In this document: piece after piece, positions 6,844 to 9,998 of the stretch
Position numbering within the stretch: the stretch's first letter is position 1
Layout: every line of letters starts with the position of its first letter
Notes under the pieces: model-generated
Databases searched by the model: none
What the model saw: the letters and a program-made list of their open reading frames with translations, nothing else
What the model was told of the DNA's origin: nothing
Translations under genes and position numbers: made by a program
Virus record (IMG/VR): IMGVR_UViG_2851955134_000003
Location: 1 to 41,806 of that record
Direction: 5' to 3' (one strand)
Length of the DNA: 41,806 nucleotides
Origin: a virus
Taxonomy: Duplodnaviria > Heunggongvirae > Uroviricota > Caudoviricetes

Positions 6844-7536
6844 ATGAATACCAAACCTTCCATCTTTTCCTTTGAGTCATCCTGCCAGATCCGTATGTTC
6901 ATGATTGACGGAGAACCTTGGTTTGTCACCAAAGATGTGTGCAATGCTTTGAATATTGATGTTACACAAGCGAGAAAACTTGATAAAAAAGGCTGGAACA
7001 AAAAGGGGCTGTATTCAATACAGACCCCTGGTGGAATACAAGAACTATCCATCGTTTCAGAATCAGGTCTCTACATCCTTATTCTGCGTTGCAAAGAGGC
7101 AATGACTGAGGGAACGAGAGCATTCAGATTTCTTGAATGGGTTACAGGCGAAGTACTTCCTCAGATCCGCCGCACCGGAAGTTACATTAAAAACTCGCTC
7201 CCGCAGGAAGAACGCATAAAGATGGTTGCCGACCAGGTAGCCAACGCCACGGCGTCAGCAGTAATGCAGGCGATGAAGATAGAGAACAAAACCTACAGCG
7301 CCCCGCTGAAGCCCGGCTACCGCAGTCTGATTCATTCGCCGTCTGGTGTTCTCGGCCTGACGGAGAACTCATTGCTGATGAATCTGCTGAATCAGTTGCA
7401 GGACGACGGGCATGATGTATCGGGCGCGGCGGCGGAACTGACCACCATGTTCTGCTACATCGTCGGTGTGAGCAAATGCCTGCGTGATATCCAGACGCAC
7501 GCGGAGTACATCAACGACAAGGCAGGGTTCTTCTGA
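6844..7536 (+). CDS. Antirepressor with Bro-N N-terminal domain and shared Ant C-terminal domain
   Basis: 230 aa from ATG 6844 (RBS AAGGTGA); Bro-N hallmarks IRMFMIDGEPWFVTKDVCNAL ... LPQIRRTGSY; C-terminal ~80 aa near-identical to the Ant at 9054-9998. Confidence 0.8.
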   Translation: MNTKPSIFSFESSCQIRMFMIDGEPWFVTKDVCNALNIDVTQARKLDKKGWNKKGLYSIQTPGGIQELSIVSESGLYILILRCKEAMTEGTRAFRFLEWVTGEVLPQIRRTGSYIKNSLPQEERIKMVADQVANATASAVMQAMKIENKTYSAPLKPGYRSLIHSPSGVLGLTENSLLMNLLNQLQDDGHDVSGAAAELTTMFCYIVGVSKCLRDIQTHAEYINDKAGFF

Positions 7537-7560
7537 CAGAACGGCGGCACAGGGATGTGC
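7303..7560 (+). repeat. Left copy of a ~258-bp inverted repeat (3' end of ant gene plus ~24 bp past the stop)
   Basis: Aligns by eye with the reverse complement of 9030-9287 with about a dozen mismatches. Confidence 0.8.
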
Positions 7561-7609
7561 CTTTAAATAATTCTGTACAGATTGCAGACTGTGGGTGAAT
7601 AGCGTACTA

Positions 7610-7624
7610 TTACCTTAAAGGTAA
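7610..7624. promoter_or_regulatory. Operator-like site TTACCTTAAAGGTAA just upstream of the RBS of the 69-aa/288-aa cassette
   Basis: Perfect 6-bp arms; 26 bp upstream of ATG 7651. Confidence 0.5.
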
Positions 7625-7650
7625 ACCATGTGTTTACATGAGGAGGAGAT

Positions 7651-7860
7651 ATGGGATTTTGGTTCGCTCGTACAAAAACGAGGGATAATGCACCCAGCCC
7701 TCAGGCAAAAAATGCAGAAGTTCCGGCGTCAGCGCAGGTTAACAAGCGTGGTGGTGTGTATATCTCATCACAGCAAATTTCTGAGCTTCCTGAGGTTAAG
7801 GAGATGCGTCGTCTCGCTGCTGCAATCGTTAAACAGGATCTTGCCACTGTAAGGAAATAG
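7651..7860 (+). CDS. Hypothetical small protein (69 aa), first gene of a two-gene cargo cassette
   Basis: Strong RBS GAGGAGG 6 nt upstream; its stop overlaps the GTG start of the next gene (TAGTG), indicating translational coupling. Confidence 0.55.
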   Translation: MGFWFARTKTRDNAPSPQAKNAEVPASAQVNKRGGVYISSQQISELPEVKEMRRLAAAIVKQDLATVRK

Positions 7861-8726
7861 TGTTGTTAGCTCTTCTAATTATCCCCATTCTGGTTAGTGG
7901 TTATATTATGATAACCGCTAACCAGTATCATTATTTCCGTTTATACCGACATGAAGGCCAGCTTCTTTATATGAAAGTAGCTGCATTAGGTACATATTGC
8001 CTTGTTGCTTCGGTAATAATTGCCGCATTTATAAAATATAAATATCCTGATTTTCACCTAGTTCACGATATGGTGGAAACTTTTAATGTAACGTCAAAAC
8101 CAGAAACAGATAGAATTTACATGTGGCTGCTTCTTCTCTCAGCCACATCCATTTGCTTCTCTTTGTGTTATGTGTCTGTTGTGTGGGTGAAAGATTTTCT
8201 TCTTGGTTGTTTTTATAAACGTGATATTTACGAGCAAAAAACAGAGGCAATGAAGGCCAGAGTACTGCGAAAAACTTACTCGCAAGGTTCTTTAGACTTA
8301 CTATTGCTTGATGCTATTGAATCGGATCCTAAACGACCAATGCTGATTACTTTATCATCAAACAAAGTGTATGTTGGAATAATAAATGGTTCTGGTGAAC
8401 CAACGGAAAATCAGGGTCCGCATCAGCACATATCTTTTGTTCCTTTAATGTCAGGATACAGGAACAAAGACAACTTATCTGTCACATTCACTAATGCTTA
8501 TCCAGGAGAAATACAGGTCAAGCGGACTGCAGCAATAAGAGGAATTAGCAGAAAGAAAGTGCCAGGACTTGAGATCATGGTGTCTATTGACGAAATAAGT
8601 TATATATCATGGTTTGATTTTGAAGTATATAAAGCAACAAATAACAAAGTAGAATCCAGGGGGCACGTTATTCGTGTTACCAAAAATGGAAGAAATATAT
8701 ATCAAAGAAATAGCAAAAAAGAATAG
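7860..8726 (+). CDS. Hypothetical membrane protein (288 aa): three N-terminal TM helices plus ~170-aa soluble C-terminal domain; candidate superinfection-exclusion/abortive-infection factor
   Basis: AT-rich ORF coupled to the upstream small gene, followed by an intrinsic terminator; the exclusion/defence role is inferred from position in the immI-like region, not from sequence similarity. Confidence 0.5.
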   Translation: MLLALLIIPILVSGYIMITANQYHYFRLYRHEGQLLYMKVAALGTYCLVASVIIAAFIKYKYPDFHLVHDMVETFNVTSKPETDRIYMWLLLLSATSICFSLCYVSVVWVKDFLLGCFYKRDIYEQKTEAMKARVLRKTYSQGSLDLLLLDAIESDPKRPMLITLSSNKVYVGIINGSGEPTENQGPHQHISFVPLMSGYRNKDNLSVTFTNAYPGEIQVKRTAAIRGISRKKVPGLEIMVSIDEISYISWFDFEVYKATNNKVESRGHVIRVTKNGRNIYQRNSKKE

Positions 8727-8748
8727 CCCGCGCTGCGGGCTTTTTTGT
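8726..8748 (+). terminator. Rho-independent terminator of the 69-aa/288-aa cassette
   Basis: GCCCGC-gct-GCGGGC hairpin followed by TTTTTT. Confidence 0.75.
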
Positions 8749-8818
8749 GGACGAAACAAAAGCCAGTGCTACACTCATTGACGCCACATTGAGGTGGCTT
8801 ATAGATGGAAATTTCACA

Positions 8819-8980
8819 ATGAAAAAAGCATTTGCTGCACTGTTCGTTTTGTTGTCTCTGGTAGCTTCAACTCAGGCCTTTGCCGGTCGTTGTCAGCACG
8901 ACAGCGATACTGCCGCTGACGGCTCCCGCTGCGGTGGGCGTTCTGCGGATTCCCGTCCGGGCGGCGGTGGCATTCGTTAA
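8819..8980 (+). CDS. Small secreted protein (53 aa) with signal peptide and two cysteines
   Basis: MKKAFAALFVLLSLVASTQAFA signal-peptide-like N-terminus then a Gly/Arg/Asp-rich tail; weak RBS, so uncertain. Confidence 0.35.
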   Translation: MKKAFAALFVLLSLVASTQAFAGRCQHDSDTAADGSRCGGRSADSRPGGGGIR

Positions 8981-9003
8981 AAACAAGGCCGCGAAAGCGG
9001 CCT

Positions 9004-9015
9004 GTGACATGTCAC
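9004..9015. repeat. Palindrome GTGACATGTCAC, copy 1 of 3 (14-mer CGTGACATGTCACA on the minus strand)
   Basis: Perfect 12-bp palindrome next to hairpin GGCCGC-gaaa-GCGGCC; identical 14-mers at 27215-27228 and 29433-29446. Confidence 0.6.
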
Positions 9016-9029
9016 GATAGTTCCTTTTT

Positions 9030-9287
9030 GCACATCCCTGTGCCTCCGTTCTGTCAGAAGAACCCTGCCTTGTCATTGATGTACTCTGCGTGAGTCTGGA
9101 TATCACGCAGGCATTTGCTCACACCGACGATGTAGCAGAACATGGTGGTCAGTTCCGCCGCCGCGCCCGATACGTCGTGCCCGTCTTCCTGTAACTGGTT
9201 TAGCAGATTCATCAGCAGTGAGTTCTCCGTCAGGCCGAGAACACCAGACGGCGAGTGAATCAGGCTGCGGTAGCCGGGCTTCAGCGG
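9030..9287 (-). repeat. Right copy of the ~258-bp inverted repeat (3' end of the second ant gene)
   Basis: Reverse complement matches 7303-7560. Confidence 0.8.
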
Positions 9288-9998
9288 ATAACCATAACAT
9301 TTTGTCTGTGTTTTAATTGCCTCACGAAGCGCATCTAACATCTTGACTGCCACTTCATCATTCTCTGATGCAGATCCAGCAGGGAGATACTCCCCTTCAA
9401 GCGGAACCCGAGCAACAAGAGACAACGCTTCGGCGAATTGATCTTCATCAATTTCTTTGTACGAACAGCCAAAATGAGATTTCAGTGACGACCACATGGT
9501 GATCATCGCCTTAGCCTGTTTTTCTTTTGGCAGAGACTGACCGCGACTCATGACGAGTTGTTTAATGGCTTCCTGCTGTTCAGTGGTTATTTTACCCGGC
9601 AACGCCTTTTTAGCTTTGCGTGGGTTAACCACATGGCCTTTAGTCCAGTACTCGTAGAGCACATCGTCACACTCTTCCTGATACTGGATTACCTTGTCGC
9701 GGATTTCAGGACGGACTTTGTTAGGGCTGATGGTTTGCAACCAGCCAGCAAGTTTGCGAAGTGCCAAACAAATAATCTCACGGCGCTGTTCATCCCCAGG
9801 AAGCTGCATTGTGATTTTCACAATGCAGGTTTTAAACCGCTGCTTCATTTTCGTAAACTGTGAAGCCCAATCCATACCCATTCCCTCAACGATAGGCTTC
9901 ATTGGTGTGTACGGTTCGCCGTTGTGATTGACAACATAAAGTTCTACGCCGTGGAATGGCACGTTGATAGTAGATACCGCTGTTGCTATACTCGTCAT
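9054..9998 (-). CDS. Antirepressor Ant (AntA-type N-terminal domain plus shared C-terminal domain)
   Basis: 314 aa; N-terminal FHGVELYVV.NGEPYTPMKPIVEGMGMDW pattern as in phage antirepressors; C-terminal 80 aa shared with the Bro-N Ant; follows an Arc-like gene as in P22 immI. Confidence 0.75.
   Translation of the reverse strand: MTSIATAVSTINVPFHGVELYVVNHNGEPYTPMKPIVEGMGMDWASQFTKMKQRFKTCIVKITMQLPGDEQRREIICLALRKLAGWLQTISPNKVRPEIRDKVIQYQEECDDVLYEYWTKGHVVNPRKAKKALPGKITTEQQEAIKQLVMSRGQSLPKEKQAKAMITMWSSLKSHFGCSYKEIDEDQFAEALSLVARVPLEGEYLPAGSASENDEVAVKMLDALREAIKTQTKCYGYPLKPGYRSLIHSPSGVLGLTENSLLMNLLNQLQEDGHDVSGAAAELTTMFCYIVGVSKCLRDIQTHAEYINDKAGFF

Follow-up and report, generated by a model that had tools for sequence, protein, structure and literature searches.

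We find that a single prophage locus carries three genes with the same domain of ~80 amino acids (aa), each behind a different kind of genetic control. The locus lies in a DNA stretch of 41,806 nucleotides (nt), IMG/VR record IMGVR_UViG_2851955134_000003, the whole of which was analyzed and is called the window here. The domain occurs alone (6273-6530), fused to a Bro-N domain (6844-7536), and fused to a P22_AR_N domain (9054-9998). Its homology points to the antirepressor Ant of Salmonella phage SPC32H, whose partner is the repressor Rep. We consider it probable that the three copies deliver one Rep-inactivating, SPC32H-type module behind three locks. The window is a prophage of the epsilon15/phiV10 group (genus Uetakevirus), with Escherichia phage TL-2011b as its best phage match, and close relatives reside in hundreds of Escherichia coli chromosomes. 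Related loci are cited below by L numbers where they need to be told apart.

Three genes share one domain

An earlier note, made from the DNA letters alone, had proposed three copies of the domain, and BLASTP recovered all of them. We refer to them as copies A, L, and R, and list them here with their presumed target.

6273-6530, plus strand: copy A, stand-alone antirepressor (type A, 85 aa), orthologue of SPC32H Ant; phrog_450
6844-7536, plus strand: copy L, fusion of Bro-N to a type-B Ant domain (230 aa); Pfam Bro-N, phrog_450
9054-9998, minus strand: copy R, fusion of P22_AR_N to a type-B Ant domain (314 aa); Pfam P22_AR_N
35043-35627, plus strand: Rep, the presumed common target; helix-turn-helix (HTH) domains

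The C-termini of copies L and R align with 84/101 identities (E 3e-51, BLASTP), and their last 80 residues show a single difference (D/E). Copy A is more diverged, as had been claimed, being identical to the fused C-terminus at 36 of 81 positions (44%; E 4e-17). All three match phrog_450 (E 3.5e-48 for copy A, 5.8e-37 for copy L, and 1.7e-35 for copy R), a family that carries the PHROGs label 'unknown function'; in copy L the match spans residues 162-243 of a 245-aa open reading frame (ORF). The isolated module has no match to a Pfam family, even at E 10. Relative to type A, type B has an extra N-terminal helix of ~15 aa, and 15 positions are invariant across both types in the family alignment. 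RefSeq gene models of relatives (258 nt and 693 nt long) support the starts at ATG 6273 and ATG 6844.

The N-terminal parts fall into distinct Pfam families: Bro-N in copy L (PF02498, E 2e-13, above the gathering score) and P22_AR_N in copy R (PF10547, E 3.6e-44). The latter had been taken for an AntA-type domain, which we do see on the module, in L006. That the two N-termini are unrelated was slightly too strong a statement, because the copy L protein also has a sub-threshold P22_AR_N match (E 0.0044) in Pfam. Copy R lacks the usual partner P22_AR_C, with no PF10548 match in Pfam even at E 10.

The domain matches SPC32H Ant, and the window encodes a Rep homologue

The Ant-Rep antirepression system of SPC32H was reportedly described by Kim and Ryu in 2013 and by Kim et al. 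in 2016 (structures 5D50 and 5D4Z). Searched against the PDB, a profile of the domain matches chain E of 5D50, 'Anti-repressor protein' (E 1.8e-35, chain residues 3-83), and 5D50 is the Ant-Rep complex of Salmonella phage SPC32H. Copy A is 89% identical to the SPC32H gene annotated ant. Judged by these matches, copy A is the orthologue of SPC32H Ant and the shared ~80-aa domain is an SPC32H-type antirepressor Ant; we encountered no defined non-regulatory function for the domain.

A Rep is encoded in the window as well. It shares 42% identity with its SPC32H counterpart (N-terminal domain 54%, C-terminal domain 39%) and matches chain A of 5D50 (E 4e-42). Pfam assigns only HTH families to this Rep and finds no S24 self-cleavage (peptidase) domain in it, and without such a domain, induction must run through an antirepressor. 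For SPC32H, excerpts of two papers describe an Ant tetramer that binds two Rep dimers and breaks the Rep tetramer (PMC9638917), and Ant production upon LexA cleavage (PMC7380047). By homology, an Ant tetramer would act likewise in the window, binding two dimers of the non-cleavable Rep and breaking up the DNA-binding Rep tetramer.

The resemblance to SPC32H extends to the position of copy A between the tailspike and structural genes, to the same LexA box, and to the Rep homologue. However, SPC32H and epsilon15 have the stand-alone copy only, without isrK, C4, or sar, whereas the window has two more copies, each joined to an N-terminal domain and subject to a different control.

Copy A lies behind a LexA box

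Copy A is preceded by a perfect SOS box with its core, CTGTATAAATATACAG, at 6235-6250.

6233-6252, plus strand: LexA box TACTGTATAAATATACAGTT, just 5' of the copy A ribosome-binding site

This box is the sole AT-rich CTGT-N8-ACAG match in the region, and a LexA box occupies the equivalent place in SPC32H and in 11 related loci. The same CTGT-N8-ACAG scan found no LexA box near copies L or R. Further matches to the pattern, at 22164 and 26706, were rejected as LexA sites; their spacers are GC-rich and they fall within the number expected by chance. Copy A would be the ancestral stand-alone Ant, repressed by host LexA and linking prophage induction to the SOS response to DNA damage.

Copy L lies behind an isrK-like RNA and a C4 antisense RNA

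The hairpin-rich leader that the earlier note had counted as a separate input can now be specified: it consists of an isrK-like RNA and an antisense RNA of the P1/P7 C4 type.

6578-6606, plus strand: promoter-like site, TTTACA-17-CATAGT with TG (consensus scan)
6613-6689, plus strand: isrK-like RNA; Rfam isrK, 74.7 bits (gathering score 50)
within the isrK-like RNA, plus strand: candidate decoy sites a1, CUACAGAGG, and b1, UUGGUCU (6638-6644, second isrK loop)
6670-6689, plus strand: intrinsic terminator ending the isrK-like RNA
6708-6795, plus strand: C4 antisense RNA, P1/P7 immI type; RF01695, 78.6 bits (gathering score 45), full length
6752-6760: C4 recognition element a' (large loop), CCUUUGUAG
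6767-6773: C4 recognition element b' (single-stranded), AGACCAA
6799-6805, plus strand: C4 target b2 in the ant leader, UUGGUCU
6827-6835, plus strand: C4 target a2 in the ant leader, CUACAAAGG, overlapping the Shine-Dalgarno sequence of ATG 6844

The position of the promoter-like site relative to the Rfam isrK start (6613) suggests that it starts the isrK-like RNA. The Rfam model c4-a1b1 also aligns at 6600-6652, at 39.9 bits, which is below its gathering score of 46.7. Elements a' and a2 are perfect complements over 9 nt and b' and b2 over 7 nt, and b' pairs with b1 as well.

These pairings are maintained by covariation. When 11 loci are aligned, three-way covariation is seen within a'/a1/a2 and within b'/b1/b2, and pairing of the C4 element with both its upstream and its downstream site is kept in every locus. 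The first element exists in four versions and the second in two, giving six specificity combinations; for the element that differs, non-cognate combinations typically retain 3-6 contiguous pairs, compared with 8-9. Both isrK and C4 are kept in all five relatives scanned for RNA families. We regard this as strong comparative evidence for a functional, specificity-diversified C4 antisense control. Copy L would belong to a P1/P7-type operon that runs from the promoter through the isrK-like RNA with a1/b1, C4, and b2/a2 to ant, and in a lysogen, C4 would pair with the copy L ribosome-binding site and block its translation.

The immI regions of P1 and P7 (c4, icd, ant1/2) share this layout: C4 comes from the leader of the ant operon, a1/b1 lie upstream and a2/b2 downstream, and the downstream site covers a ribosome-binding site. 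They also show specificity variants with compensatory changes, and the C4 specificities of P1 and P7 are said to have been compared by Citron and Schuster in 1990. The differences are threefold. First, there is no ORF between C4 and ATG 6844, hence no icd-like ORF in the window, and C4 is aimed directly at the ant ribosome-binding site (L007 and L016 have an overlapping 168-aa ORF upstream of ant). Second, in the window group, the regulated protein joins the SPC32H-type module to Bro-N, AntA, or ORF6N. Third, the window is an integrated podovirus, whereas P1 and P7 are plasmid prophages.

A second likeness is to the isrK-orf45-anrP region of Gifsy-1, where, according to excerpts of PMC4825925 (Hershko-Shalev et al. 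2016), an isrK with its own terminator lies 5' of an antirepressor-like gene that depends on read-through for its transcription and on isrK for its translation. The same excerpts describe the intervening 'orf45' as conserved in nucleotides and not in amino acids. The window likewise has an isrK RNA with its own terminator before an antirepressor-like gene, but it has a recognizable C4 at the position of 'orf45', and the isrK sites a1/b1 change in step with the C4 loops. This covariation suggests that isrK acts by titrating C4, and 'orf45' of Gifsy-1 may in fact be a C4 RNA gene. In phage vB_EcoP_ZX5 (ZX5), the 'ash family protein' ORF (L023 1965-2078) lies just 5' of the Bro-N gene, at the position of C4 in relatives; from its position, this ORF may likewise be a C4 RNA gene. 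As a separate observation, in L001 (strain OkiPb01676), at ~3513-3589, the first isrK hairpin loop and its closing bases are flipped (GGCAAAATCC to GGATTTTGCC), and the Bro gene downstream is frameshifted.

Copy R lies in a P22-type mnt/arc/sar unit

Copy R is read in the opposite direction, within a unit that resembles immI of P22 and the corresponding region of the P22-like phage CUS-3.

9964-9992: promoter-like site of sar
10000-10067, plus strand: sar antisense RNA; RF00262, 45.2 bits (gathering score 43), full length
10043-10062: terminator of sar
10071-10238, minus strand: Arc-like gene, 55 aa
10250-10270: 10-nt palindrome downstream of the Pant-like promoter
10274-10302, minus strand: Pant-like promoter, TTGACA-17-GACAAT with TG (consensus match), before arc and ant
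10359-10790, plus strand: Mnt-like gene, 143 aa

The sar RNA abuts the ant start (9998) and runs antisense to the arc-ant junction and to the ribosome-binding site of ant. It is present in four of five relatives scanned (L001, L002, L005, and L006) and also in CUS-3. The Arc-like gene lies upstream of copy R in the same direction; it matches phrog_228 'Arc-like repressor' (E 2.3e-5), is annotated Arc-like in TL-2011b, and has no Pfam match. Divergent from arc-ant, the Mnt-like protein has an N-terminal Arc/ribbon-helix-helix domain (Pfam Arc, E 1.2e-14; phrog_1388).

The arrangement thus shares with P22 immI and CUS-3 the divergent Mnt-like gene, the Arc-like gene before ant, the sar RNA over the ribosome-binding site, and P22_AR_N itself. 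It differs from P22 immI in that the Mnt-like protein has 143 aa, with an unrelated C-terminal half, and in that the presumed target is Rep rather than a C2-type repressor of lambda and P22. By this likeness, copy R would belong to a region of mnt, divergent promoter, arc, sar, and ant, in which Mnt would hold copy R off in the lysogen while Arc and sar would limit it after infection. The proposal of separate inputs in the earlier note is borne out, with the LexA box at copy A and the Mnt-like gene, Arc-like gene, and sar at copy R.

The module is shuffled among N-terminal carriers

The left-hand gene varies among near-isogenic E. coli prophages, in which a module at least 94% identical in DNA is found on Bro-N, AntA (L006), or ORF6N (L007). 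A plain homology search for the domain gave mostly short fragments. An exhaustive profile search over 1.84 billion protein cluster representatives found it in only 59 proteins, whose fused members have AntA, Bro-N, Phage_pRha, or ORF6N at their N-termini. A further exchange separates copy R from the Ant of CUS-3: the two are 78% identical over the first 224 aligned residues, similarity fades after ~residue 205, and CUS-3 Ant has P22_AR_C at 207-279 (E 5e-29), the place that the SPC32H-type module takes in copy R. Shuffling at the conserved 3' module, which the earlier note had suggested, is therefore seen with Bro-N, AntA, ORF6N, and Rha as well as in the CUS-3 swap.

The clean exchange of P22_AR_C for the SPC32H-type module indicates that the C-terminal domain sets the target and that the N-terminal part is a carrier. 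The C-terminal module would be the target-specific part, and Bro-N, AntA, ORF6N, Rha, and P22_AR_N would be interchangeable carriers that arrive with their control circuits. Iyer, Koonin, and Aravind reportedly described, in 2002, the domain-shuffled KilA-N/Bro-N/ORF6N/AntA/Rha regulators of DNA viruses. The window proteins resemble these in that varied N-terminal modules are joined to varied C-terminal modules in phage 'antirepressor' proteins. They differ in having a C-terminal partner with a solved structure and a known binding partner, although it has no Pfam family, so that here the shuffling can be read functionally.

The distribution of the module follows that of Rep. Of 50,697 phage records, 34-35 contain the module and 37 contain Rep, and these are essentially the same Uetakevirus-like set; TL-2011b is the sole isolated phage with three copies in these records. 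Representative genomes of 185,579 species yielded six loci, all in Enterobacterales, five of which have the tandem of stand-alone type A, isrK, C4, and Bro-N::type B (Erwinia, Superficieibacter, Scandinavium, Citrobacter, and Klebsiella). Three of these five tandems include a strict LexA box. Because the A-plus-L tandem is common to these genera, the pair is old; we encountered the third copy nowhere but in a sub-lineage of E. coli. Stand-alone type-B proteins of ~95 aa occur in Klebsiella, Raoultella, and E. coli. phiV10 has no P22-type unit, and in its Bro-N 'anti-immunity' gene (L012 4743-5422), an indel splits the C-terminal module into p23 and p22.

Copies L and R exchange sequence and frame a cargo slot

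Copies L and R are convergent, so that their common module forms an inverted repeat. A repeat search gave 293 nt at 90% identity (7268-7560 and 9030-9322), with a high-identity core of 258 nt (7303-7560 versus 9287-9030; 94.96%). The figure of ~95 percent DNA identity in the earlier note is right for this core. Among its 13 mismatches, 11 are synonymous, one lies just past the stop codon, and one is non-synonymous. DNA similarity extends 24-26 nt beyond both stop codons.

7303-7560, plus strand: left arm of the core repeat, the 3' 234 nt of copy L plus 24 nt after its stop, with the hairpin GGCACAGGGATGTGCC
9030-9287, minus strand: right arm of the core repeat, with polymorphisms in common with the left arm across genomes

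We compared L and R across ten genomes at 249 inner positions. No position has a fixed difference between the arms (0/249), and 16 of 43 polymorphisms are shared by them. Four alleles are confined to one or two genomes, where both copies have them. Pairs of L and R from the same genome are closer than random pairings (mean 10.2 versus 11.3 differences; permutation P = 0.037). The shared polymorphisms and this within-genome closeness indicate that gene conversion or recombination transfers sequence between the arms. Conversion of this kind keeps L and R alike, and the repeats frame a slot for cargo exchange.

7651-8980: region between the fused genes (cargo)
7651-7860, plus strand: 69-aa ORF (cargo); phrog_5739 / phrog_3630 for the cargo pair
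7860-8726, plus strand: 288-aa membrane protein (cargo)
8725-8741: terminator after the cargo
8819-8980 (longest ORF 8747-8980), plus strand: small membrane-anchored protein; phrog_3117, phrog_14503; RefSeq 162-nt gene in relatives

The slot between the convergent ant genes behaves as a cargo-exchange hotspot framed by the module. The cassette of 69-aa and 288-aa proteins is also found in L015; neither protein has a match in Pfam or PADLOC. A predicted structure of the 288-aa protein (pLDDT, the predicted local distance difference test score, 73) has a mainly helical N-terminal part of ~120 residues, with three membrane-spanning-like helices as judged from the residues, and a beta-rich C-terminal domain with a weak resemblance to Sm/LSm proteins (best Foldseek E 7.5e-3). 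Co-transcription of the cargo with the copy L ant is possible, since no promoter-like site was predicted between the copy L stop (7536) and 7651 and the cargo is followed by a terminator (8725-8741). The gene of the small membrane-anchored protein is kept beside the right-hand ant in relatives.

Among L002 and L005-L011, the contents of the slot equivalent to 7537-9053 change with nearly every relative: a YafO toxin with a partner ORF, DUF4760, DUF2335, or a 210-aa ORF. A second variable slot lies between copy A and isrK (equivalent to 6531-6560, where it is empty in the window). It spans 3452-4540 in L002, 1953-2681 in L005, and 1955-2894 in L008, and its contents include a YafO toxin pair (L008), a 242-aa ORF (L005, L010, L014, and L015), and a 1.1-kb pseudogene (TL-2011b).

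Genes flanking the locus

Beyond the three ant units, the locus is bounded by the following genes.

3494-6076, minus strand: tailspike, pectate-lyase-like
10833-11444: 203-aa ORF (phrog_8033)
from 11456: structural genes

The tailspike beside copy A varies among relatives, being pectate-lyase-like in the window and an SGNH hydrolase, an endosialidase, or GH28-related elsewhere, while its N-terminus and the ant side are conserved. The 203-aa ORF is kept beside the Mnt-like gene in window-type relatives and has a weak TIR-like (ThsB) match in PADLOC (E 0.0059), the one hit that PADLOC gave among the cargo and its neighboring proteins.

Do all three copies act on Rep?

The earlier note had all inputs converging on the same target. 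This is plausible given the Rep homologue, the co-occurrence of Ant and Rep, and the evidence from ZX5 below, while binding of Rep by the fused copies is something we infer from their sequence. ZX5 has two copies where the window has three. Its Rep is 100% identical to that of the window, and its ORF4, a Bro-N fusion, is 80% identical to copy L, with one difference in the last ~120 residues. Excerpts of PMC9782041 describe this 'anti-repressor' by its Bro-N domain and mention neither the SPC32H-Ant-like module nor a stand-alone ant upstream nor the C4 and isrK RNAs. According to them, the prophage titre fell from 1e9 to 1e6 when ORF4 was over-expressed, and repressor mRNA dropped by 75%. A protein with a near-identical C-terminal part thus counters lysogeny when over-expressed, in a phage with an identical Rep.

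Several points weigh against convergence of three copies on Rep. The ZX5 experiment, as excerpted, was an over-expression of a tagged protein with lysogeny as the readout (PMC9782041). Type-B copies are just 44% identical to type A, and the fused copies have N-terminal extensions of 150-230 aa, which puts their fit with the Ant tetramer in question. Between the window and SPC32H, Ant (copy A) is 89% identical but Rep only 42%, a mismatch that leaves the basis of Ant-Rep specificity unexplained. A Foldseek search of the PDB with the predicted monomer of the module (pLDDT 74) gave noise (best E 5.6) and did not recover 5D50, so the link between module and 5D50 is one of sequence. For a helical protein that forms tetramers, such a monomer model is probably unsuited to this test, and the profile match settles homology to the 5D50 Ant. 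In the control regions, Arc-like is a label from a single PHROG match, and sar scores narrowly above its gathering score.

The alternative that survives best, although we think it unlikely, is that the module is mainly an oligomerization (tetramerization) domain. The fused proteins would then act through their N-terminal DNA-binding-like domains, as regulators of transcription or replication, or would form mixed tetramers that modulate the SOS-driven stand-alone antirepressor without binding Rep themselves. Bro-N, ORF6N, AntA, and Rha are reportedly held to be DNA-binding modules in general, a view ascribed to Iyer, Koonin, and Aravind in 2002, and this counts in its favor. So does the tetrameric state of SPC32H Ant, as excerpted from PMC9638917, and the 15 positions invariant across types A and B make mixed oligomers conceivable. 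However, a generic oligomerization domain needs no Rep, and the module is almost confined to phages of the Rep family. Type B also exists as stand-alone proteins of ~95 aa, and the excerpted over-expression of ZX5 ORF4 turns the phage from lysogeny (PMC9782041).

It is similarly improbable that the type-B copies have a different target, for instance a Rep variant from another prophage or some host or phage protein, with no convergence at all. The divergence between types A and B would fit this, and the coexistence of A and B in tandem across at least six genera suggests non-redundant roles; antirepressors that act in trans between prophages are also known in Salmonella (Lemire 2011, as represented in an excerpt of a citing paper). 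Yet Rep is 98.5-100% identical in every E. coli group member, and the phage collection contains no other repressor family that accompanies the module. ZX5, with the same Rep and a near-identical type-B module, responds to its own ORF4 according to the excerpts of PMC9782041.

Another possibility is programmed inversion, with the inverted repeats as the ends of a cassette whose flipping would place the cargo under one or the other of two promoters; the 258-nt repeat would then be conserved for recombination and not for protein function. The repeats do bracket variable cargo, and a synthetic query for the junction expected from flipped cargo matched 5 of 535 matching E. coli genomes. The three junction genomes inspected (L014, L015, and L016) contain no simple flip of a window-type locus. 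They have two convergent isrK-C4-ant units around the cargo, a second isrK-C4-Bro-N::module unit standing at the right instead of the P22-type unit; they lack sar, Arc, and Mnt, and a P22_AR_N remnant persists in L014 and L015. The whole block between the convergent units is oppositely oriented relative to the tailspike in L014/L015 versus L016. The region does undergo rearrangement. Cargo orientation is nevertheless identical in 10/10 window-type loci, no invertase gene lies nearby, and the arm differences are nearly all synonymous, a signature of selection on protein. We therefore consider a programmed inversion very unlikely.

That the extra copies are functionless, decaying duplicates left by mosaic recombination is hardly credible, for although relatives include damaged copies (the frameshifted Bro gene of L001 and the split module of phiV10), the three window ORFs are intact, the L and R modules differ by one amino acid despite 13 nucleotide differences, the control RNAs are conserved with compensatory changes, and the A-plus-L tandem is retained across genera.

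Implications for phage immunity

Every component of the locus was already known: Ant-Rep from SPC32H, c4 from P1, immI from P22, and the shuffled Bro/KilA proteins. What is new is the placement of three controls on one structurally defined effector module, together with diversifying C4 specificities and gene conversion. Control by LexA (SPC32H and coliphage 186), by c4 RNA (P1), and by Mnt, Arc, and sar (P22) are textbook cases, and they stand here side by side in one 4-kb stretch with one effector domain.

By analogy with immI of P1 and P22, copies L and R would most likely be anti-immunity functions that act in superinfection. A superinfecting phage with a C4 type or Mnt missing from the resident would express Ant, inactivate the shared Rep, and grow, and the C4 and Mnt of the resident would protect against phages of the same type. 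More tentatively, the locus may be a site of a combinatorial immunity arms race, in which Rep is shared, the antirepressor locks diversify, and conversion keeps the module uniform. The diversity of locks would consist of at least six C4 combinations, and of either Mnt/Arc/sar or a second C4 unit at the right. If this is true, isrK would be an anti-antisense decoy that titrates C4, uniting c4 of P1 with IsrK of Gifsy-1, and cargo co-transcribed with ant would be expressed exactly upon a breach of secondary immunity.

Our findings offer a functional reading for the common and poorly understood 'Bro-N/AntA/KilA-N antirepressors'. With a structure solved for the C-terminal half and its binding partner known, one can test here directly which of the two halves contacts the repressor and what role the N-terminal one has. 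The loci also supply a natural series of C4 specificity variants for studies of heteroimmunity. This phage group resides in many pathogenic E. coli, and TL-2011b, the nearest isolated relative, comes from an outbreak strain of enterohemorrhagic E. coli, so that induction triggers and mutual superinfection are practical questions. The locus shows phage switches that are built from interchangeable parts.

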